Shown piece after piece: positions 1,032 to 57,139 of a stretch of DNA of 64,000 nucleotides. Location of the stretch: the sequence record PQ567651.1; one strand, given 5' to 3'. The DNA comes from Escherichia phage cardinal. The notes under the pieces are model-generated. The model did not search any database, was not told where the DNA came from, and worked only from the letters and a program-made list of their open reading frames with translations. The translations under genes and the position numbers were made by a program. Numbering within the stretch: the first letter of the stretch is position 1; each line of letters opens with the position of its first letter.

Positions 1032-3191
1032 CTATATATAAAATTTTTGTGTTGTTACTAAATCTTCTCCAGATTTAGTGGCTAATGTAATTCCACTTAT
1101 GGTGGCAATCGTAACATTTACCTGTTTAAGAGTGATATCTTGCAAATAGCAATTCAAAGGCACATTACCCATATAAAAAACTTGGGATTTTGAATTAAGA
1201 ACAGTTATTGAATCATGCATTATTTGTGGATAAGCCCATATGTATTGATATAAACCAACAAACTTCTGGTCATTCAATACAATATTACCTATAATCATTT
1301 TCCACAAATATGTCCTATAGTTTGATTCAGGATCAAAGCCATATAATGGTGCTAGAGTTGCATCTGGAACAAACCCTGCAAGATAATGTATCTTATCATA
1401 ACTAAAACCTAGTTGCTCATTAGGTATTGTGATAGCGTCGAAAGATCTTTCCATCTTACCTTCCAACAACCAATCATAACATTCTGAACAATAAAAGTCA
1501 AAGTTTTCTGGGATATAATAATCTTTAGGGAAGTTAACAAATTCCATCATACCGTTACCTAAGATGGATGGTACAAATGGTAACAATGTAACTTTTGCTC
1601 CAGGATATGCTAATCTAGTATCTGTTGCAAATTTAGCAACACGCAGTCCTAATGTTTTAGACAGGAATGCATAATATTCATCATATGGTGTACCAGTTTT
1701 ATAATTCTTAACTGTACCAACATCTTGTGCATATAATCCAGTTTCATTATTAAATGCAACTTTGGTTGCATAATCATAAATACACGGGAGATTGGTAGCT
1801 GTGTTATACCACCACCACGGTTCACCAACCTGAATAATAACCGGAAGATCATTAGCAGCGGATATAGAAGCTATCTTATTTATTACACCTTGTAAATAAT
1901 TCATCCCTTCATCAATTGAAGGAGATAAAACATAACTTGGTGGCTCATAACCTGTAGCAGCCAGATTATCATTCCAAGTATGTTGTACCCATTCTACAGG
2001 ACACACTGTACTCATAAGTTCAAAACTTAAGGAGTTCATTACTGTGTAGCCCATAGCTTTTGCATTAGCGTGGAAATTATCAAACCAGGCTTCTGTTGCT
2101 GGGTTTAAATATTCTGTTCTGTTCAAAGTCCATTTATTAGATCCAGCATCCCAACTAAATTGATAATAGTGTGACATACCATTATAATGGTTAATCATAT
2201 CTCTATAACCTAATCTATAGGTGTTAGAAATAACTCGCTCCGGGGTTAGGTTATACATATCATCATAAGATGTACACATTCTTATGGTGTGTGCTGGAAC
2301 ATTTAAATTACCCATATTCATCATACTGTAACCAGTATCAGGCTCTAGTATGGTAAACTTAAAGGAAAGATCCATATTGTCTACAGGTATAACATCTTCA
2401 ATTTCTTGATACCTTGCGGAGATCAAGGAGAAGAACATATTATCTATCTGTGTAGTGTCAACAACAATATCATTTTCTGGCCCAGATTTTAAATTTGAGA
2501 AATCTAGTTTGATTGTTGCTGTCTTACCATCTTCTGAAACTTCTTCTGCATAAAAGTTTAGAGATACATAATGAACTGTTTCATCCTTCAGTGTCACTGT
2601 TAAGGATGGTATTAATTTTTCTTCTTTTAATCCAGGAACACCTTGACTAAGTTCCATTTTAAACCAAAGTTTCTCTTTACTTAAGTCAGAATGTTCTTGG
2701 TAGCCTAATCCTTTGTGATCATATTTATCGTAAGTTGACCAAATAATCCCAGCAAGACCAGCCACTGTCCTATTAACCATTCTTGCTGTGAAAGAATCAC
2801 CATTAGAGATAATAGAACAACTTTCTGTTGATTGAGAATCTATTGTCCAAAACTTAGGATCAAACATTCTAGACTTCACAACAGGCCAAGTTAGCGGGGT
2901 TGTATTCGATTGATCAGTCGTAATAACACAACGAATTTCTTCGTTGATCATCATGTTATTTTGACTTATGCTAGTAATCTCAAGAGTAAAATAAAGATCT
3001 AAAGAGTTTGCCGGACGTTCATATACATCAACCACTACAGTAGCAGAATCTGCATCAGAAGGGAACGTTACTGTTCCCTGTTTAGCTACATAATCTCTAC
3101 CAGCGACCGCCGTTCCATCGACGGTCTTATAGCTGAATGAACTGGCATTTACTCTCGTATTTCGAGTTACAGTAAAAATAGCCTGTTTCAT
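1032..3191 (-). CDS. tail fiber/receptor-binding-like structural protein with N-terminal Calx-beta-like domain
   Basis: 719 aa; N-terminus TVDGTAVAGRDYVAKQGTVTFPSDADSATVVVDV matches the Calx-beta pattern; lies between tailspike and baseplate genes. Confidence 0.45.
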   Translation of the reverse strand: MKQAIFTVTRNTRVNASSFSYKTVDGTAVAGRDYVAKQGTVTFPSDADSATVVVDVYERPANSLDLYFTLEITSISQNNMMINEEIRCVITTDQSNTTPLTWPVVKSRMFDPKFWTIDSQSTESCSIISNGDSFTARMVNRTVAGLAGIIWSTYDKYDHKGLGYQEHSDLSKEKLWFKMELSQGVPGLKEEKLIPSLTVTLKDETVHYVSLNFYAEEVSEDGKTATIKLDFSNLKSGPENDIVVDTTQIDNMFFSLISARYQEIEDVIPVDNMDLSFKFTILEPDTGYSMMNMGNLNVPAHTIRMCTSYDDMYNLTPERVISNTYRLGYRDMINHYNGMSHYYQFSWDAGSNKWTLNRTEYLNPATEAWFDNFHANAKAMGYTVMNSLSFELMSTVCPVEWVQHTWNDNLAATGYEPPSYVLSPSIDEGMNYLQGVINKIASISAANDLPVIIQVGEPWWWYNTATNLPCIYDYATKVAFNNETGLYAQDVGTVKNYKTGTPYDEYYAFLSKTLGLRVAKFATDTRLAYPGAKVTLLPFVPSILGNGMMEFVNFPKDYYIPENFDFYCSECYDWLLEGKMERSFDAITIPNEQLGFSYDKIHYLAGFVPDATLAPLYGFDPESNYRTYLWKMIIGNIVLNDQKFVGLYQYIWAYPQIMHDSITVLNSKSQVFYMGNVPLNCYLQDITLKQVNVTIATISGITLATKSGEDLVTTQKFYI

Positions 3192-3199
3192 TATTTTCC

Positions 3200-6076
3200 T
3201 TATTTGGTTACATCAACACTAATATCATTCATAGTTAGAACAGTTAGTGTTGGTATGTTACTATTATCCAAAATTGGTAAAGCGTTTTGAGGGTTTAGTT
3301 TACGATACAAGGCATATAAACCAAAACCACGTAATAGTTCTCCTGCATGGAAACCAAAGAACATTCCGTTATCTGAATCTGGGCGTGGTGCAACACTCCA
3401 GGAACCATTCATCGGATGGTTAGGGGAAAGCACAATATAGTTTTGCTGAATCAGATCAAAACATCTGTCTGCTACAATACCAATGTTTGGAATTTGTGAA
3501 TCATAACCTGCCAAGCCCATGATTGAACAACCCGCCATAAACAGTGCAGACATATGACTAGTAAAGTCATCTATAGGTGCAAGAACTGTACCATCTGGAT
3601 TAAAGATAGTTGGTGTTCTTCCATCATTATTGTCTTGGAACCATTTAAGGTAGTTGATCCAATTTTTACAAACGGTTACTAGTTTTTCAGGAGGTGTTTC
3701 TCCTCTTTGTACAAGTTCGTATACAGCATGACAAGCACAGTAGAATGCACGAGCTTCATAACCATCCCACGCTTTTTCATTCCAGTGTTTCATTGTGAAC
3801 GTATTTGGTTCACCGTATTTTCTTGCATCCCAACGATCCCACACATATGCTTGTGCCATAGGCCCAGGCATCACAGGATCAAACGTGTTATAAAACCACA
3901 TTTGAGCATCATACAAGAAATCAATACTGTTGTTTAAACGTGTCCAATCAATATCCCTACCTGCGAAACAGTATAAGGAAGGATACTGGTATCCTGGGTA
4001 TGGAATACCACGCCATCCATCGTATAATGCAGTGTTTGGGTCACTGATATTAGAGAATGGAATTATTCCTGGTGTGTAATTAAGACTATTTAACTTATAG
4101 TCAATAATAGTACAATCACCTAACTTAGCAGTATGAGGATTTGAAGCCTGTACAGTAATACGGAAGTACATGGTATAATCATCACCAGAAGATGACGAAT
4201 ATCTTTCAGGTACATCGTTAATACAATAGAAATCTATTGTTCCTGTTAAACCATTGACAGGAGCCGTATCAAGAACTAAATTTACCTGATCTACAGCAGT
4301 AAGATTTATTGCTGAAGGTTTAGGATCTGTTTCTGGATGATTAGGCTGGTAAGCACTTAACTTAAAATCAGAAGCTGATAAAGTCTTCGTACTCCATGCC
4401 CCTTGCGTTTTAGGCAGCATAGCCCACCATCTCCAACCTTGAGCATCCGTGATAGTCATGTTAAAGTCATCTTCATATGTTCTATATGTAATAGACTTAA
4501 CATTAGCTTTTGATGTAGGAGTTAACCAAAAACCAACAGTAACACCACCATCCGTATCCATTGATGCAGTAACAATCTGGTCATTATTAGTTCCAGCAAT
4601 ACCTGTTACATACTTATATTGTACCACAGTATTGTCACCCCAGTCAACAATAATTCGCGGATCTGCGATAATATATGTTCCACCACTTGGAGGGGTGCTT
4701 CTCATAAAGCTGGATAATGGAATATCCATGCTTGTCATATTAGCTGTACCCAGTGGTAAGCCACAGCGGTAAGTTACTGTGTTATTTTCATCTTTGGTCT
4801 TACTTAGTTCCAACTCTGGACGGAAAAGAATACCATGTCCTGCGTCATCTACACCTTGAAACTGAACTCGTAACTTAGAGTTCTGATCAACTTTAAACCA
4901 AATGGCTTGCTGTTCTAATGTTGTTTGAGCAGCAACATCTTGTCTAATAACAATATAGCCTAAAGTATCTCTTGAATATTTAGGTATTGCTGTAGATGGA
5001 TATGAATAATCGTAAGAGATGCCATCTGTAAACGGAATAGTTGCATATGTAGACTTACGGAAAAATTTATCAAACATATCAATGTTTGAGTAATCTTGAC
5101 ACACTAACAGTGAAGACTGCCAGCATAGCCAATATTTTCTTTCTCCTGTAATTTGGTACATCAGGTAATTAGCATCACACCACCAAGTTTCGGCATCTGA
5201 CGCATTATCCTGAAAGCCCATTTCTACCGGAACGTTAACTGGTCTGTTATGCCACATAGTGTTACGCTCCATTAAATAACCACCGTGCTCAACAGGGTTA
5301 CAAGTCGCGTAGTTAAATTTATATGTACCGTTTACAGAAGTATTTTTTAGTTGAACTGTTCCGTATTGAGATGTTGGAAAACCTTCTTCTAAGACATTTC
5401 CATCCCAGTCAACTTTACGTCCTAGACGATCAATGATCCAATCAACATCCCATTGATCTCCCTTCTTAGACCAATCTGTTGTACCATCTGCATTAACAGC
5501 ATATACTGTAGCGTTTACAGAGTTCCATCCTAGATTACCATTAAAAGCAAACCATGCTTTGTCAAGGTATTCTCCCCAATGAGGAGCACCATGAGGAATA
5601 ACTGTTCTACCGTTAGTCCACGTCATTAAGCTACCCTTAAAACCTCCGTGTGTAGGGTAGCCATCATCTGTAAGAGGATAGTGCGCAAGACGTGGTTCTT
5701 TACCGTTAATAATCCAGTTAGGGCGATATTTTGCTGGCGGATCGGGGATCGGTTGACCACCAAAGAAGTAATCTATATAGGCTTGCCAATATTTTTTAGC
5801 AGAGTCTAAATACTTTGTATCGCCGGAAGCCAGGTATGCATAAGCGCAACCAAGAATAAGCACGGATTGACCTTCTGTTGTAGCATCCCCGTTTGGTTGC
5901 CCTTCTTGAGCAGTCCAGTTTATAAAGTGTCTGTTATTAGCTAGAACGTTTTGTGGGTTTAATACATAGTGTTGCACTGTAGGATCTACAGTTAAACCTG
6001 TATTACGATCTAAGAACTGAATATGTCCATCGATCAGTTGAAAAACATTGTCAATTCTGTGCTTAATTCTTGACAT
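3200..6076 (-). CDS. large tail/baseplate-associated structural protein (possible tail fiber)
   Basis: 958-aa ORF in the tail module, no overlap conflicts; function inferred from position only. Confidence 0.45.
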   Translation of the reverse strand: MSRIKHRIDNVFQLIDGHIQFLDRNTGLTVDPTVQHYVLNPQNVLANNRHFINWTAQEGQPNGDATTEGQSVLILGCAYAYLASGDTKYLDSAKKYWQAYIDYFFGGQPIPDPPAKYRPNWIINGKEPRLAHYPLTDDGYPTHGGFKGSLMTWTNGRTVIPHGAPHWGEYLDKAWFAFNGNLGWNSVNATVYAVNADGTTDWSKKGDQWDVDWIIDRLGRKVDWDGNVLEEGFPTSQYGTVQLKNTSVNGTYKFNYATCNPVEHGGYLMERNTMWHNRPVNVPVEMGFQDNASDAETWWCDANYLMYQITGERKYWLCWQSSLLVCQDYSNIDMFDKFFRKSTYATIPFTDGISYDYSYPSTAIPKYSRDTLGYIVIRQDVAAQTTLEQQAIWFKVDQNSKLRVQFQGVDDAGHGILFRPELELSKTKDENNTVTYRCGLPLGTANMTSMDIPLSSFMRSTPPSGGTYIIADPRIIVDWGDNTVVQYKYVTGIAGTNNDQIVTASMDTDGGVTVGFWLTPTSKANVKSITYRTYEDDFNMTITDAQGWRWWAMLPKTQGAWSTKTLSASDFKLSAYQPNHPETDPKPSAINLTAVDQVNLVLDTAPVNGLTGTIDFYCINDVPERYSSSSGDDYTMYFRITVQASNPHTAKLGDCTIIDYKLNSLNYTPGIIPFSNISDPNTALYDGWRGIPYPGYQYPSLYCFAGRDIDWTRLNNSIDFLYDAQMWFYNTFDPVMPGPMAQAYVWDRWDARKYGEPNTFTMKHWNEKAWDGYEARAFYCACHAVYELVQRGETPPEKLVTVCKNWINYLKWFQDNNDGRTPTIFNPDGTVLAPIDDFTSHMSALFMAGCSIMGLAGYDSQIPNIGIVADRCFDLIQQNYIVLSPNHPMNGSWSVAPRPDSDNGMFFGFHAGELLRGFGLYALYRKLNPQNALPILDNSNIPTLTVLTMNDISVDVTK

Positions 6077-20115: not shown

Positions 20116-20595
20116 TTAATCCTTCTTCACTTTACATCCTACTGCACCAATGCTTAAACCTTTAAGAACGCCGTTCTTTCTTGCTTCATACAGTTCAGGA
20201 TCATAGAATTGAATTTTAACGAGTGGTGTTCCTTCAACAACAAACTCGTCACCAATATAACAATCGACTTCATTAACCCAAGCCTTAACTGGTTTAAATT
20301 TATCGGTGTTTTTGATATGACCAAGATTACCACTTACGTTAGTAATATTTGCGTTGAAGTTGTCAACCATCTTTCTGATTTCAATTTCAGACATACGTTC
20401 ACCGTGGAGGTCATCGTGTTCTGGTGGACAATACATCACTTCAATCACTTGCATTTTTTCTTCGTCAAATTTATTTTGTTTGACGATAGTAGCAGGTGTT
20501 TCTTCTGGAGTGGAATTTTGTTGGGTTTGCTTTTTCTCTTTCGTTCCACTGAACGTTTTATAGAGTTCCCAAAGCGTGTCTTTATTAAGTTCCAT
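20116..20595 (-). CDS. head morphogenesis protein (possible prohead protease)
   Basis: ORF track start 20607; the second in-frame ATG at 20595 is preceded by AGGAAC. Function assigned by position only. Confidence 0.35.
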   Translation of the reverse strand: MELNKDTLWELYKTFSGTKEKKQTQQNSTPEETPATIVKQNKFDEEKMQVIEVMYCPPEHDDLHGERMSEIEIRKMVDNFNANITNVSGNLGHIKNTDKFKPVKAWVNEVDCYIGDEFVVEGTPLVKIQFYDPELYEARKNGVLKGLSIGAVGCKVKKD

Positions 20596-20631
20596 ACGGT
20601 TCCTCATAAAAACAAATATCCCATAAATCTT

Positions 20632-36700: not shown

Positions 36701-37633
36701 GTGGCTAAGTTCAATTGTGATGACCTGATTGCAAAAGGTTTAGTGCATAAAAAAGAAGTTAAATCTGGAGAGTATGCTGGTCTTGCTGTGCTTAAATACA
36801 AAAACAATGTATTCTGGGATAATTTGTGGAACGTTGACAAACGACTTTTAGATTGTCGTGGGTTGGTTGTTGACTCAGAAGATAATGTTGTTATTTGGCC
36901 TTTTACTAAAATCTTTAATCGTTTTGAAAATGGTACAGATCTTCCAGCAGACGAAATTGTAGATGCTGTCCGTAAAGTAAACGGTTTTATGGCATCTGTA
37001 GGTGTGTACAAAGGGAAACTTGTTGTATCAACAACAGGGAGCCTAGAATCAGATTTCGCAATTATGGCAAAGAACCGTATTGTTTCCGAGTGTGACGACA
37101 TAGAGTATTTCATTAAGTGGACAGAGAGTGCAAAAGCAACTTTTCTTTTTGAAATCTGTGATCCTTCTGATCCACATATTGTCGAAGAAGAACCAGGCGC
37201 ATACTTAATTGGAGCAAGAATTCAAAATCTTGATGGAACAAGTTTCATGTTACCTGAAGGTGTTCTTGATGGGATTGCATCTATTACAAAGTTTAAACGT
37301 CCTGAAGTTTATCCGATGATTAAATTTTCAGATGTTGTTGAAATGTCTAAACATTGTAAACACGAAGGGTTTGTTGTTCGTGAAACAAACTATCCGTTTA
37401 ACTTACTCTTAAAGATTAAGTCACCATACTATCTTGCTAAGAAGTTCCTTATGCGTGGTGGCAATAAGAAGTGGGATATGATTTGGGACAACCCAAACAA
37501 TGCTAAACAAATTGTTGACGAAGAATATTATACTTTGTTAGAATGGCTTCGAAATAACTTTACGAAGGTTCAATGGGCTGCTCTAGATCCACAAGAGCGA
37601 CGTAAAGAAATAGAAAACTTCTTTGGAGGCTAA
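36701..37633 (+). CDS. ATP-dependent RNA ligase (Rnl-like nucleotidyltransferase)
   Basis: 310 aa; ligase motif I KVNG (RKVNGFM), motif III FLFEIC, motif IV EGFVVR, motif V LLLKIKSPYY. Confidence 0.55.
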   Translation: MAKFNCDDLIAKGLVHKKEVKSGEYAGLAVLKYKNNVFWDNLWNVDKRLLDCRGLVVDSEDNVVIWPFTKIFNRFENGTDLPADEIVDAVRKVNGFMASVGVYKGKLVVSTTGSLESDFAIMAKNRIVSECDDIEYFIKWTESAKATFLFEICDPSDPHIVEEEPGAYLIGARIQNLDGTSFMLPEGVLDGIASITKFKRPEVYPMIKFSDVVEMSKHCKHEGFVVRETNYPFNLLLKIKSPYYLAKKFLMRGGNKKWDMIWDNPNNAKQIVDEEYYTLLEWLRNNFTKVQWAALDPQERRKEIENFFGG

Positions 37634-38038
37634 ATGAAACAACTTATCATTTTACGTGGTGTTTCAGGCGCAGGTAAATCTACAGTAGCAGAAATTATTT
37701 CTGAAGGTTATTGGCCTATCTGTGAGGCAGATCAATATCATTACACAGAAAACGGTGTTTACGATTGGAAGCCAGAAAATGTAGGTAAAGCACACTCATG
37801 GTGTCAGAGTATTGTTCGTGATGCTATGGCATCTAATATTAAAAAGATTATTGTCTCTAACACTTCAACCACAGAGAAAGAACTTAAACCTTATTTTACT
37901 ATTGCTGAAGAGTTTGGTTATCAAGTTATCTCTTTAGTTGTTGAAAATAGGCACGGTAACGACTCAATTCATGAGGTTCCACAACATATTCGTGATCAGC
38001 AAGAGAAACGTCTTCGCAGTTCACTTAAGCTACAATAA
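37634..38038 (+). CDS. polynucleotide 5'-kinase (T4 Pnk kinase-domain-like P-loop protein)
   Basis: 134 aa; MKQLIILRGVSGAGKSTVAEII and KIIVSNTSTTEKELKPYFTIAEEFGYQVISLVVE recall the T4 Pnk kinase domain (MKKIILTIGCPGSGKST...GVIISDTNLNPERR...EYGWKVEHKVFD) as I remember it. Confidence 0.6.
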   Translation: MKQLIILRGVSGAGKSTVAEIISEGYWPICEADQYHYTENGVYDWKPENVGKAHSWCQSIVRDAMASNIKKIIVSNTSTTEKELKPYFTIAEEFGYQVISLVVENRHGNDSIHEVPQHIRDQQEKRLRSSLKLQ

Positions 38039-53110: not shown

Positions 53111-53308
53111 ATGATGCTAGATCAACTGATCAATGCTCCTCGCGTAACAGTAAGTCCAAAAACATTTGCATCACTTTTAGAAGATGCTAGAGAGGTTTAT
53201 AACTTTACTGAAGAAGAGATTCCTGTTCCTGTTGAAAAAGGTTCCAGATGGTTGTTTTATGAAGGTATTATTTTTACTGAAGGGAATAATTGGAAGGAGA
53301 CTAAATGA
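53111..53308 (+). CDS. hypothetical protein
   Basis: ATG at 53111 after GGAGGA; ORF track start 53018 overlaps the upstream gene. Confidence 0.35.
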   Translation: MMLDQLINAPRVTVSPKTFASLLEDAREVYNFTEEEIPVPVEKGSRWLFYEGIIFTEGNNWKETK

Positions 53309-54213
53309 AATACTTAGTAACAGGTGGTTTAGGCTTTATTGGAAGTGCGGTAGTTCGTTTCCTGGCTAAAAACACTAAGAATGATATTTACGTTATAGAT
53401 AAATGGAGTTACGCTTCAGACCCTAGAAATTTATCAGAAACACCTAATGTAAAGTTTTGTCGTGTTGACTTGACAAATGCTCAGTTAACTGCTAAGATTG
53501 TGGCAGATGTTAATCCAGATTATATAATGCATCTTGCAGCAGAAAGTCACGTAGATAACTCAATAGCATCACCGAGTGTTTTTATAAATTCAAATATTGT
53601 TGGAACATTTAATCTTCTAGAAGCTGTTCGTTTAATGGGAGATAAATCAAATCTTAAAATGTTTCATCATATTTCAACAGACTATGTTTTTGATGGGCAT
53701 GTTGCTGGCACAGAAGATAGTAAAACAAACCCCTTGAACACCTACGGTTACAGTAAACAATTAGGTGAAACTTTAGTACAAACAGTTTGTCCTACAGCAC
53801 TTATTATCAGAACAGCTTCTGTTTATAGTGAATTTGGACATAACTTTTTGAAAACTATGTTGGAACGCTACAACGGTGGTCAAAAAGAATTTAATGTAGT
53901 ATGTGATCATTTATCATGTCCTACTTATGCACCTGATCTTGCAGAAACAATTTTTAAACTTGTAAAAGATGGTGTAAATAGTAAAATTGTACACTATGCA
54001 GGTGCAGATTATATTTCTTGGTATGATTTTGCACGAAAGATATTTCTTGTTATAGATTTATCTGTTACAGTTAATCCTGTATCTGCTTCAACCTATAATT
54101 CCAAAGCAGTCAGACCAGCAACATCTTATTTAAGAACAGATCCTACTTTAAATCCGCGAAGTGTTGATAGCGGTATTGTAAGAGCTTTAACTATACTTTT
54201 AAACAAGGAGTGA
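53305..54213 (+). CDS. NAD(P)-dependent epimerase/reductase of the extended SDR family (RmlD-like)
   Basis: 302 aa; Rossmann VTGGLGFIGS and catalytic YGYSK (YxxxK). Confidence 0.6.
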   Translation: MKYLVTGGLGFIGSAVVRFLAKNTKNDIYVIDKWSYASDPRNLSETPNVKFCRVDLTNAQLTAKIVADVNPDYIMHLAAESHVDNSIASPSVFINSNIVGTFNLLEAVRLMGDKSNLKMFHHISTDYVFDGHVAGTEDSKTNPLNTYGYSKQLGETLVQTVCPTALIIRTASVYSEFGHNFLKTMLERYNGGQKEFNVVCDHLSCPTYAPDLAETIFKLVKDGVNSKIVHYAGADYISWYDFARKIFLVIDLSVTVNPVSASTYNSKAVRPATSYLRTDPTLNPRSVDSGIVRALTILLNKE

Positions 54214-54476
54214 AAATGAATTTTATTATCTACGGTAAACCAAATTGTCCTTTCTGCACTAACGCTAAGATTCTACTAGAACAGCGTGAACAGGATTTTA
54301 AATACCTTACCTTAGATGAAGACTATTCTTTAGATCAGATTCAGAATCTGGTTTTAGAGAAAACAGGTGTTCTACCACGCACATTTCCTCAGATTTTTGT
54401 GGAAGATGGTGAACAGCTAACCCACGTAGGAGGTTTTTCTGAACTACGTGAATTCATGGCTCAGATTGCGGAGTAA
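54210..54476 (+). CDS. glutaredoxin (NrdH/Grx-like)
   Basis: 88 aa; active site CPFC. Confidence 0.75.
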   Translation: MKMNFIIYGKPNCPFCTNAKILLEQREQDFKYLTLDEDYSLDQIQNLVLEKTGVLPRTFPQIFVEDGEQLTHVGGFSELREFMAQIAE

Positions 54477-55175: not shown

Positions 55176-55928
55176 ATGGGAAATAAAACCGCAAAGGCTC
55201 GTCGTCAATCAGCAGCCAATGATGACAAACGTGCCAGTCGTTATGCGGCTAAAGCAGTAGGAAATGATGATTACCGTCTTGATGAATTTACCCCTGTTGG
55301 GAATCAAGAAGCTATTGTAAGAAGCATGGTTTGGAATGATTTAACCATTGTTAATGCCCCAGCAGGAACAGGAAAAACGACAACAGCACTATGGAAAGCA
55401 TTGCAAATGCTTAAAGCTGGTGATTTCAGAAAGTTGATTTTCCTTAAAAACCCGACAGAAGTAGGTGATGATCAAATTGGTTTCTTATCTGGAGATAAGA
55501 CTGATAAACTAGCAGCACATTACGAATCAACTAAAAGAATTTTCCAACAGTTTATGACTGCAAATAAATTGGAAAACGATATTGCAAGTGGCAAAATTGA
55601 ACTTAATATTCCAAACTATGCACTAGGTGCTACGTGGGATAACAGCATTATTCTTATTGATGAAGTTCAACTTATGTCACCAAATACAGTAAAACTTCTC
55701 CTTGAGCGAGCAGGTCTTAATACACGTATTGTCATTATGGGTGATGTTAATCAAACATATGCAATTAAACGAAGAGCTAATGGGTTAGGTGATTTGTTAG
55801 ATCGTGTTGTTCCTATTAACGAAGAAGGAGAAAGGGAAGCTATTGTAGATTTTATTGGTTATGTTGAAATGACAACTGCTGATAACCAACGTTCCCGTTT
55901 GTCTCAGTTCATCACGGAAGTATATTAA
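55176..55928 (+). CDS. phoH: PhoH-like ATPase
   Basis: 250 aa; Walker A NAPAGTGKTTTAL and DEVQ Walker B. Confidence 0.75.
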   Translation: MGNKTAKARRQSAANDDKRASRYAAKAVGNDDYRLDEFTPVGNQEAIVRSMVWNDLTIVNAPAGTGKTTTALWKALQMLKAGDFRKLIFLKNPTEVGDDQIGFLSGDKTDKLAAHYESTKRIFQQFMTANKLENDIASGKIELNIPNYALGATWDNSIILIDEVQLMSPNTVKLLLERAGLNTRIVIMGDVNQTYAIKRRANGLGDLLDRVVPINEEGEREAIVDFIGYVEMTTADNQRSRLSQFITEVY

Positions 55929-55964: not shown

Positions 55965-56456
55965 ATGACGCTAATTGAGATTGATCGCAATGGTATTGAT
56001 GAATGCTATCAAGCTGGCTTAGTTAAGCCGAATGAGTTTAGACAGATTTATATTGACAAGATTGAAAAAGAAATATCTCTTCGTTTAGAGAACATGACAA
56101 CTTTGCAAAAAGTTCAGATGTTTTTTAGTTGGTTGAAAGGAGAGGATTGGCTAACTAAATATTACCAGGAATTATCTGATAGTCAAGAAGGCTTGTTTGA
56201 GTGTATAATAAATGTAGCTGGGTCTAATTCAGAGTTACTCCTGATTGATGAAGAAGATTCTAAACTTCTTTTTCTTAGCAGTATTTTTCACAAGAAATCT
56301 ATGTTAGTAAGAAATTGCAGTGATTTACTAAATCATCCACTAACAAGAACTAATAAAATTCTTGTGGATAAAGAAACACTAAGAGCTATTGATTACCTCC
56401 GTAAATATGTAAGCGGTGGTAAAGCAGTCCTTAAAACACTACAGGAGGAAGTATAA
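55965..56456 (+). CDS. hypothetical protein
   Basis: 163 aa. Confidence 0.4.
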   Translation: MTLIEIDRNGIDECYQAGLVKPNEFRQIYIDKIEKEISLRLENMTTLQKVQMFFSWLKGEDWLTKYYQELSDSQEGLFECIINVAGSNSELLLIDEEDSKLLFLSSIFHKKSMLVRNCSDLLNHPLTRTNKILVDKETLRAIDYLRKYVSGGKAVLKTLQEEV

Positions 56457-57109
56457 TGACAACAATTATTGCAACACGTAACAAAATTTTGTCTGACGGT
56501 AAGGTAACAGTAGGTAGTCGTGTAGACACTTTAAACTTCAAGAAAGTGCGTAAAATTGGGGACTACCTTGTTGGTGGTGCAGGACGTCTGTCTTCTATCC
56601 TGACTTTCTTTTCTTGGTTTGAACAAAACTTACAATGCCAGGCAGCACAAGAGACAATCCCAGGTTTGGTGATCCAGTCAGATCCCGATAAAGAAGATGA
56701 AGAGTTTGTGGCATTGGTTGTTCATCCAGATGGTAAAATTTATATGCACGAGGGTAATAATCCAACGCGAGCATATCCTTTAACTGAAGATTATTATGCT
56801 GTTGGTAGTGGGGCAGATTTTGCTTTAGCAGCTTTAGATGCAGGGGCAACTCCAGAAGAAGCGATGGAAGTTGCAAAACTGCGAGATGCTTTTTCCGGCG
56901 GTGAAACTTTTATCGAAGAGATCGAAGAACAACTGGAGTTAACAGCGGAAGATATTCTGAACTTCAGCAAGGAGCAACTAATTAGTATGCTGTTGACTGG
57001 TGATCCTGATAGCGATGAAGCTGAAAGTATTTTAGCAGAAATGAAAGAATCACAAGAAAAAGTATTGACAGTCTCTGAAAAACTTGATAAAGTGTCCTCT
57101 GATAATTAA
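56456..57109 (+). CDS. HslV-like N-terminal-nucleophile peptidase (proteasome beta-subunit homologue) with acidic C-terminal extension
   Basis: 217 aa; MTTIIATRNK...KKVRKIGDYLVGGAG...AVGSGADFALAALDAG aligns with E. coli HslV MTTIVSVRRN...KKVRRL...GFAGG...AIGSGGPYAQAAARAL as I remember it, including Thr2. Confidence 0.55.
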   Translation: MTTIIATRNKILSDGKVTVGSRVDTLNFKKVRKIGDYLVGGAGRLSSILTFFSWFEQNLQCQAAQETIPGLVIQSDPDKEDEEFVALVVHPDGKIYMHEGNNPTRAYPLTEDYYAVGSGADFALAALDAGATPEEAMEVAKLRDAFSGGETFIEEIEEQLELTAEDILNFSKEQLISMLLTGDPDSDEAESILAEMKESQEKVLTVSEKLDKVSSDN

Positions 57110-57117
57110 TCTAGTAT

Positions 57118-57139
57118 AAACCCCCTCAAGGGGGTTATT
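57118..57139 (+). terminator. rho-independent terminator
   Basis: AACCCCCT-CAA-GGGGGTTATT. Confidence 0.5.

Follow-up and report, generated by a model that had tools for sequence, protein, structure and literature searches.

What would an HslV-like peptidase do in a phage in which no gene for HslU, the ATPase partner of HslV, is found? The question is raised by a 64,000-nucleotide stretch of Escherichia phage cardinal (PQ567651.1; here called the window), which carries an orthologue of the phi92 gene Phi92_gp058, referred to as gp058 (Table 1). An earlier reading, made from the letters of the window alone and here called the sequence-only reading, took this gene for an HslV-like peptidase without a visible HslU partner. 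Using profile searches, structure prediction and comparison of related loci, we arrive at a reading that we hold to be rather probable: gp058 would be an N-terminal-threonine peptidase of the phage-lineage PPH/RPC type, descended from the HslV branch and independent of an ATPase, with its C-terminal tail as a docking module and the product of the adjoining gene, gp059, as its likeliest phage partner.

The existence of such genes is not new. The region matches 55 phi92-like coliphage records (Justusliebigvirus, Stephanstirmvirinae; among them phi92, muut, EmilieFrey and VivaForever) at a nucleotide identity of 98–99.7%, and the gp058 protein is 100% identical to its counterparts in several Justusliebigvirus phages. 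The original record gives Phi92_gp058 as "putative 20S proteasome" and RefSeq gives it as "peptidase HslV family"; elsewhere it goes by "putative proteasome component", "nucleophile aminohydrolase" or "ATP-dependent protease subunit". A jumbo-phage genome note likewise remarks that its own HslV genes come without HslU. Phage HslV-like peptidases lacking HslU are thus already in public annotation and their family has been described, and because both exist we class the finding as already known. Our search of the literature on HslV or proteasome homologues in phages and on phi92 returned genome notes and a 2021 survey only, and no functional study.

The predicted fold is that of the proteasome. 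gp058 matches the Pfam family PF00227 (Proteasome) with 25.1 bits (E = 1.6e-5; gathering score 22.4 bits) and PHROG 1040, "peptidase HslV family", with E = 1.3e-61, residues 1–212 lying on profile positions 14–214 of 277. All 13 of the 13 best phmmer matches among PDB sequences are HslV, headed by the Thermotoga protein (1m4y, 5e-8) and including an E. coli chain at 1.2e-5. An AlphaFold2 model built with 49 homologues has a mean predicted local distance difference test score (pLDDT) of 84.6, with the core above 90, and Foldseek pairs it in the PDB with HslV (6kui, 1g3i, 1m4y), with the betaproteobacterial proteasome homologue BPH (5ovt) and with archaeal and eukaryotic 20S beta subunits (probability 1.0, E ~1e-10; template modelling scores against proteasome-type chains of 0.64–0.68, normalised on the target). 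gp058 is predicted from this model to have the proteasome-beta/HslV fold of the N-terminal nucleophile (Ntn) hydrolases, at a similarity far beyond chance. The check that the sequence-only reading had named, by hidden Markov models (HMMs) and structure prediction, therefore came out in its favour, with PF00227 above its gathering score and a Foldseek probability of 1.0 with HslV.

The active site appears to be intact. The open reading frame (ORF) begins MTTIIATRNK (full form, MTTIIATRNKILSDGK), and the MTTII start to which the sequence-only reading had pointed places Thr directly after the initiator Met on the plus strand. Methionine aminopeptidase takes off Met1 when the second residue is small, and with Thr at residue 2 its removal by the host enzyme is expected. 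In the alignment with E. coli HslV, Thr2 corresponds to Thr1, Asp14 to Asp17, Lys30 to Lys33, Gly40–Gly43 to Gly45–Gly48 and Ser118–Gly119 to Ser124–Gly125, the oxyanion region reading Gly40-Gly41-Ala42-Gly43. The KKVR and GSG segments, which had been picked out as retained from HslV, do align: K29-K30-V31-R32 with K32-K33-V34-R35, and G117-S118-G119 with G123-S124-G125. gp058 would accordingly share with HslV not just the fold but these residues and segments and the N-terminal-threonine mechanism. Across 222 aligned relatives with identities down to ~30%, the equivalents of T1, D17, K33, G48 and S124-G125 are essentially invariant. Thr occupies the nucleophile position in 75/76 close relatives, in 61/64 long and in 71/82 short representatives (with Ser in four more of the short ones), and 132 of the 150 best cluster representatives start with (M/L/V)-T. 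Conservation of the catalytic residues down to such low identity favours an active enzyme over a decoy. As aligned, the catalytic set is complete, and no propeptide precedes it.

How close, then, is gp058 to HslV itself? Of the label "HslV-like", the assignment to the proteasome-beta/HslV type is upheld by PF00227, PHROG 1040 and the fold, whereas orthology is not: against the NCBIfam HslV equivalogs NF003964 and TIGR03692 gp058 scores 34.0 and 31.6 bits, with cut-offs of 137 and 157.75, whereas E. coli HslV, run as a control, reaches 302.4 and 288.3 bits. Judged on these profiles, gp058 is not an HslV orthologue, the cut-offs being missed by more than 100 bits. A HMMER scan of 1.84 billion cluster representatives yielded 2034 relatives at E ≤ 1e-3, the best 150 of which score from 260 to 54.6 bits (E down to ~1e-9). 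Among these best 150, the nearest are long-type proteins like gp058, and from about rank 57 down, at 80 bits or less, proteins of 130–160 residues starting MTT dominate. These short proteins reach 55–80 bits in the whole-library scan, compared with 21–36 bits for solved HslV chains against gp058. The similarity is continuous throughout a range of 130–380 residues.

Phage-lineage compact proteasome homologues have been described as PPH and RPC (Fuchs, Alva and Lupas, 2021, Bioinformatics; PMC8665760). According to that survey, PPH has ~140 residues (reference WP_042125023.1), RPC is characterised by an extension or domain at its C-terminus, of unknown structure (reference WP_140207863), and both lack helix H2; RPC is listed only in Proteobacteria and not in phages, and Table 1 of the survey has PPH, but no HslV, under Actinobacteria. 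The PPH/RPC lineage descends from the HslV branch. The 130–160-residue MTT relatives of gp058 fit the description given for PPH, for which gp058 itself, with a core of 157 residues and an extension of 60, is too long; it comes closer to that of RPC. Like PPH and RPC as so described, gp058 is phage-borne, starts MTT without a propeptide, has the catalytic Thr, Asp and Lys with the oxyanion Gly, and has a compact core without H2. It differs in its length of 217 residues against ~140 for PPH, in ~20 extra core residues that form an acidic loop at the place of H2, and, compared with an RPC listed in Proteobacteria only, in a long type that was phage-restricted in our scans. In the text consulted, the survey makes no mention of a conserved tail motif, of an acidic loop or of a pairing with gp059. 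By its fit to the published description we place gp058 in the PPH/RPC sector, without choosing between the two.

Within phages the gene is widely spread. By tblastn, gp058 is present in 166 phage records, at 98–100% identity in phi92-like phages, 70–80% in Klebsiella and phAPEC8-like phages and 34–41% in Vibrio, Aeromonas and Shewanella myoviruses, and homologues occur in 19 IMG/VR loci. Long-type-specific patterns run over 185,579 bacterial and archaeal genomes hit one 425-bp contig only, and on these scans the long type looks phage-restricted. Recent horizontal transfer was considered and dropped, the GC content of the gene (40%, against 37% for the window) being unremarkable. Two oddities of the public records surfaced in these searches. 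Escherichia phage VEcB has a 267-residue protein, vecB_055, that combines a PhoH Pfam domain with 100% identity to gp058 over 71% of the length of gp058, which is probably due to faulty gene calling or assembly in that record. Three records labelled Campylobacter phage C3, A145 and B15 (MG065656.1, MG065645.1, MG065650.1; Campylobacter jejuni labels) are ~99% identical to E. coli phi92-like or phAPEC8-like phages and probably stem from mislabelled or contaminated preparations.

Could an HslU serve this peptidase? The absence of an HslU-like ATPase from the window, as the sequence-only reading had it, is borne out: tblastn with E. coli HslU finds nothing better than E = 0.08 there, and the candidate ATPases of the window are PhoH-like and polynucleotide-kinase-like. 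The same search gave no match in VivaForever 71–146 kb and phi92 1–50 kb; added to the window, these two segments account for almost all of the genome. In 26 related loci, the 6 kb on either side of the peptidase gene showed no HslU homologue. Among the collected phages, it is chiefly the jumbo phages that have HslU-like genes, and only four Escherichia-named records match at all. The jumbo-phage HslU-like ATPases, such as gp116 of Erwinia phage RAY, which localises to the phage nucleus, resemble gp058 in being a single HslUV-like half with no cognate gene adjoining, but they are the opposite half, an ATPase without a peptidase, and belong to unrelated phages.

The host might instead supply the unfoldase. 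gp058 would then dock onto the host HslU hexamer, either retargeting it or taking it from the host HslV. All the known hosts of these phages, Escherichia, Klebsiella, Vibrio and Aeromonas, are Gammaproteobacteria, which generally carry hslVU, and HslV is the closest solved relative by sequence. HslV alone is a weak peptidase that needs HslU, or the HslU C-terminal peptide, to be activated. The pocket of HslV that receives the HslU C-terminal tail is made up of F54, F57, A79, K80 and Q114 (PMC6429459). Its part on helix H1 is hydrophobic and conserved in gp058, F57 corresponding to the conserved Phe52 and F54 to Leu49, and Arg35 is kept in close relatives. The part around H2 tells against docking: the model has one long helix, 45–67, followed by a loop, 68–83 (pLDDT 72–81), in place of H2, so that Ala79 and Lys80 align to a loop with no H2 helix predicted, and the position of Gln114 holds Tyr, Phe or Leu in the gp058 family. 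Lys28 of HslV, which we take to bind the HslU C-terminal carboxylate, has Gln, Ser, Thr or Asp at its position and never Lys in the 222 relatives.

The pore loop points the same way. HslV requires its Arg86/Arg89/Lys90 pore cluster for activity, and HslU binding remodels it (PMC5777263). These residues align with K79, D81 and E82 of gp058, within the segment QSDPDKEDEE, in which Asp81 is invariant; Glu82 and the following Phe84 are nearly so. On average the loop carries a net charge of −4.8 among close relatives and of −3.3 among the distant long ones. As aligned, the basic HslV pore cluster is replaced in gp058 by a conserved acidic loop. Compared with HslV, to which gp058 is 28% identical over 127 residues only, it further has a deletion between H3 and H4 and a C-terminal extension of 60 residues, and no hslU in the genome parts searched. 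BPH, moreover, co-occurs with HslU yet does not bind it, and PPH is listed in the survey in a phylum where HslV is not. Docking onto host HslU is on this evidence rather unlikely, and gp058 probably works independently of HslU. Of the two options that the sequence-only reading had left side by side, a host unfoldase or action alone, the second is thus the better supported, by the missing H2, the acidic pore loop and the Lys28 position, and host HslU is the less so.

A precedent for such a peptidase may be found in BPH (PDB 5ovs/5ovt), which we regard as possibly the best analogue for the mechanism of gp058. BPH too comes from the HslV branch, with the active site kept and no propeptide; it has a very acidic pore loop, its HslU interface is not conserved, no partner ATPase was found for it, and epoxomicin labels its Thr1 (PMC5777263). 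The likeness has its bounds: the two proteins are 18% identical, BPH is encoded on the chromosome, in connection with stress-related operons, it forms tetradecamers, and for BPH no extension with a T-x-E...SKEELL motif has been reported.

An ATPase of the phage itself could be the partner in place of HslU. Within the window, the "ATPase" at 37634–38038 was rejected for this role, Pfam and PHROG scans showing a polynucleotide-kinase-like AAA_33 protein beside an RNA ligase; the pair at 36701–38038, an RNA ligase (PF09511) followed by the polynucleotide-kinase-like P-loop protein (AAA_33; phrog_2071/505), resembles the tRNA-repair pair of T4-like phages. PhoH, two genes upstream of the peptidase here and also in Vibrio and Aeromonas phages, was set aside as well, being a PhoH-type P-loop protein and not an AAA+ unfoldase, in a gene order that may be simply inherited. 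Outside the window, one of two phrog_2376 paralogues, found in VivaForever (PP925843.1) at 101622–102749 and 116729–117889 and encoding 374 and 386 residues, might work with gp058. Both match PF00004, one of them weakly matches p97/Cdc48 domains in the PDB, and some records name them "ATPase or Zn metalloprotease". Yet both lie ~40–55 kb from the peptidase gene, and no AAA gene is found within 6 kb of the peptidase in the 26 loci. They match clamp-loader and DnaC-like helicase-loader families just as well, and their C-termini (…TLASVF, …GGRSY) show neither an HbYX motif nor an HslU-like tail. The family is widespread in large Lactococcus, Bacillus and Staphylococcus phages and in crAss-like phages, none of which is named among the peptidase matches, so that the two genes do not co-occur specifically. 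We give this partnership a slim chance. As to their own surroundings, one phrog_2376 gene has a CapR/T5orf172 endonuclease-like gene beside it, and the other comes after the genes for anaerobic ribonucleotide reductase.

The C-terminal tail is where gp058 departs most visibly from a plain core. HslV ends at the last core strand of gp058 (ETFIEEI aligned with HTIEEL), which makes residues 158–217 an addition. The sequence-only reading had described an acidic tail of roughly 70 residues; acidic it is, with 16 Asp/Glu against 5 Lys/Arg and a net charge of −11, but it measures 60 residues. Its first part holds the family motif (L/I/P)T-x-E-5 aa-(L/M)[ST]K[ED][EQ][LI][LI]-xx-[LI][FL][GP], which is kept among relatives of 30–40% identity; from 84 aligned long members the consensus T.E......KEEL is obtained. 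Of the 150 best representatives, 35 have the strict form of the motif, at residues 154–188, and all of these 35 are at least 160 residues long. The model places helices at 164–169 and 172–181 (pLDDT 73–80). The last part of the tail is exchanged in relatives for other tails or extra domains, in proteins of up to 379 residues, some with 100–200 additional C-terminal residues that include CxxC pairs and have no Pfam match. Ten tail segments compared with Pfam at E ≤ 10 returned no recurring family and none that matches the motif, and these scans left a SAP/HeH-like helix unsupported. The tail is not random acidic filler and holds a conserved helical motif. Fuchs et al (PMC8665760) expect the C-termini of such homologues to face away from the presumed rings and to be possible interaction sites, and we infer that the tail combines a docking or assembly helix with a variable recognition end.

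What might dock there? The ATG of gp058 and the TAA stop of the upstream ORF overlap by one base (TAATG, 56454–56458), so that the two genes, the upstream one of 163 codons, abut on the same strand; the phi92 record annotates an identical ribosome-binding site for its peptidase gene. A gp059 homologue abuts the peptidase gene in 22/22 loci in which the peptidase is at least 47% identical over the aligned segment, even as gp059 itself drops to 32–38% identity in the most distant of them. This constant abutment in closer relatives makes gp059 a candidate partner. Its model is all-helical (pLDDT 94.5), with no structural relative found in the PDB and no relation to the peptidase on comparison, and its invariant motifs are CYQxGLVKPNEFRQI, VR(D/E/N)CSD and VDKETLRA. 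In Vibrio-type phages a different ORF of ~155 residues takes the place of gp059 and shares with it only a short C-terminal VDKETLRAL-like motif (hhalign probability 7.9%). We regard gp059 as the best candidate for a phage partner of the peptidase, although inherited synteny would explain the pairing just as simply. Conservation is lower for gp057, on the downstream side, and none of gp057, gp058 and gp059 matched a PADLOC-DB defence model at E ≤ 1. We do not take the hairpin downstream of the peptidase for a terminator: its folding energy does not stand out from that of shuffled sequences, a clear T-tract is lacking on the plus strand, and it is scored as terminator-like on the minus strand only.

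Two of the related loci hold further genes beside the peptidase. In Vibrio phage 1.193.O._10N.286.52.C6, a TnpB RNA-guided nuclease (PDB 8bf8, 5e-47; 2767–3867 of the examined locus), annotated as "coil containing protein" only, lies between PhoH and the HslV-like gene. In Aeromonas phage 2L372D, gene 210 (3432–3983 of the examined locus), a second and very divergent proteasome-like gene, stands directly upstream of the HslV-like gene; its product of 183 residues starts (M)TCIIA. Over its whole length this product matches PF00227 with E = 0.013, which falls short of the cut-off, and it matches the gp058-family HMM with E = 2.5e-6. This pair suggests that some phages may carry two proteasome-type subunits side by side. 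No counterpart of this second gene was found in the window.

The tight coupling to one partner gene also suits a different kind of enzyme, one that processes a single protein, gp059 or another phage protein, or joins it to another as a transpeptidase or ligase in the manner of connectase. According to the survey, all proteasome-like homologues, including the ligase connectase, have the same catalytic residues (Fuchs et al, PMC8665760), so the residues alone do not prove degradation. The variable C-terminal recognition end and the inactivity of BPH on generic substrates fit such an enzyme as well. The similarity of gp058 to connectase is, however, one of fold only; connectase has neither H1 nor H2 while gp058 keeps H1, the best structural matches are HslV, BPH and 20S beta, and no recognisable substrate motif was found. 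A dedicated processing or ligating role is unlikely.

Phage-encoded proteases are most often maturation proteases, and the window also holds the structural module, so gp058 could in principle be a head or tail maturation protease of virion assembly. Some 30 kb separate its gene from those of the head, and it is encoded on the other strand, among nucleotide-metabolism and auxiliary genes; a separate candidate for the head-maturation protease (20116–20607; phrog_3017, 1e-12) lies between the portal and the scaffold/major-head genes. Known prohead proteases use other folds. The separate candidate and the opposite-strand auxiliary location make a morphogenetic role for gp058 very improbable. Elsewhere in the window, the terminase large subunit on the minus strand (22358–25411) is split, 24173–25411 corresponding to PHROG 979 positions 1–373 and 22358–23164 to positions 391–636, and the ORF between the halves (23377–24057) encodes an HNH homing endonuclease (PDB 1u3e, I-HmuI-like, 1.8e-10). 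An essential gene here seems to be interrupted by an insertion or intron that carries an endonuclease.

The gene order around gp058, ribonucleotide reductase, glutaredoxin, cell-wall hydrolase, PhoH, one or more small ORFs and the peptidase, recurs in phages of enterobacteria, Vibrio and Aeromonas as well as in contigs from metagenomes. Its position in a co-directional block for nucleotide metabolism and auxiliary functions, and not in the virion module, suggests that gp058 probably acts inside the infected cell during replication. Just upstream of the lysozyme–PhoH–peptidase block lie a glutaredoxin gene and genes for dTDP-rhamnose biosynthesis, the dTDP-rhamnose set being seen at 53305–54476 (RmlD-like 53305–54213 and neighbours) and in phi92 at 24261–27785.

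Table 1. Features of the peptidase locus in the window (positions on the plus strand)
Feature	Position	Strand	Remarks
PhoH-like P-loop ATPase, two genes upstream of the peptidase	55176..55928	+	PF02562, 1.4e-35
Upstream ORF, Phi92_gp059 orthologue (163 residues, phrog_14834)	55965..56456	+	abuts the peptidase gene in closer relatives
Ribosome-binding site AGGAGG	56443..56448	+	7 nt before the ATG, read from the sequence
Peptidase ORF (Phi92_gp058 orthologue)	56456..57109	+	217 residues and stop, ATG start
Predicted Ntn-hydrolase (proteasome beta-type) core, residues 1–157	56456..56926	+	HslV alignment, conservation, AlphaFold2, Foldseek
Thr2 codon, predicted N-terminal nucleophile (HslV Thr1) after Met removal	56459..56461	+	
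Acidic loop QSDPDKEDEE, residues 74–83	56675..56704	+	before strand 84–89; aligns with the HslV pore loop
Conserved part of the extension, residues 158–187	56927..57016	+	E-rich linker, then LELTAEDILNF-SKEQLISMLL
Variable acidic C-terminal end, residues 188–217	57017..57106	+	low-confidence predicted helix
GC-rich hairpin ACCCCC-TCAA-GGGGGT	57120..57135	+	between the peptidase stop and the ribosome-binding site of the next ORF; −14.8 kcal/mol, z = −1.3

How would an ATPase-independent gp058 work? In the mechanism we favour, host methionine aminopeptidase would remove Met1 and expose the Thr nucleophile, and gp058 would assemble into rings as its relatives do. It would act without an unfoldase, as has been proposed for the partner-less BPH, and its substrates would be peptides, unfolded chains or a few proteins able to reach the acidic entrance. 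The 60-residue extension would face outward; its conserved helix would mediate docking or assembly, and the choice of the partner or the substrate would fall to its variable end, in whose place relatives carry other domains. The likeliest phage partner would be gp059. A more specific form of this mechanism has gp058 and gp059 as a phage-specific, ATP-independent module in which the tail helix is a built-in activator or adaptor that takes over the function of the HslU C-terminal tail by docking at a subunit interface, in the space vacated by H2, and the variable end together with the acidic loop selects basic proteins of the host (nucleoid-associated, regulatory or defence proteins, for instance) that are destroyed as infection proceeds. 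To this fuller version we assign a small likelihood.

Several points weigh against the mechanism we favour. The kept gene order may reflect the common descent of these myoviruses and not a functional link of gp058 with gp059 or PhoH. The phi92-like genomes do hold two AAA-family paralogues outside the window, the phrog_2376 genes (PF00004, 1.4e-9 and 1.2e-6), and Phe52 and Leu49 keep two hydrophobic positions of the HslU-tail pocket, with Arg35 of HslV kept in close relatives, which leaves docking onto host HslU some probability. The loss of H2 is read from the model segment 68–83, which is of moderate confidence. The model being that of a monomer, it is alignment that suggests rings, places the tail and assigns the acidic loop to a "pore". 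In the literature searched, no activity, oligomeric state or substrate was found reported for any PPH/RPC protein. BPH gave no activity on model substrates (PMC5777263), which leaves action alone with no positive precedent, and HslV by itself is a poor enzyme.

As a sequence finding, gp058 is ordinary: its annotation exists, and the sequence indicates no specific target. The host defence or regulatory proteins that the sequence-only reading had named as possible targets are purely speculative. Phage proteasome homologues have been catalogued, yet no functional study turned up in the literature searched, and gp058 offers a convenient entry point, being encoded by phi92 and several isolates of the BASEL collection, which are well-studied and easily grown phages of E. 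coli K-12. Its conservation extends over the phi92-like and phAPEC8-like records that we recovered, its neighbour gene is fixed, and in these K-12 phages the role of phage proteasome homologues is directly testable. If the mechanism we favour is true, ATPase-free degradation of particular host proteins would be a new kind of tool for phage take-over of the host, and gp058 would provide the first activity for the "orphan" peptidases derived from HslV, namely BPH, PPH and RPC.

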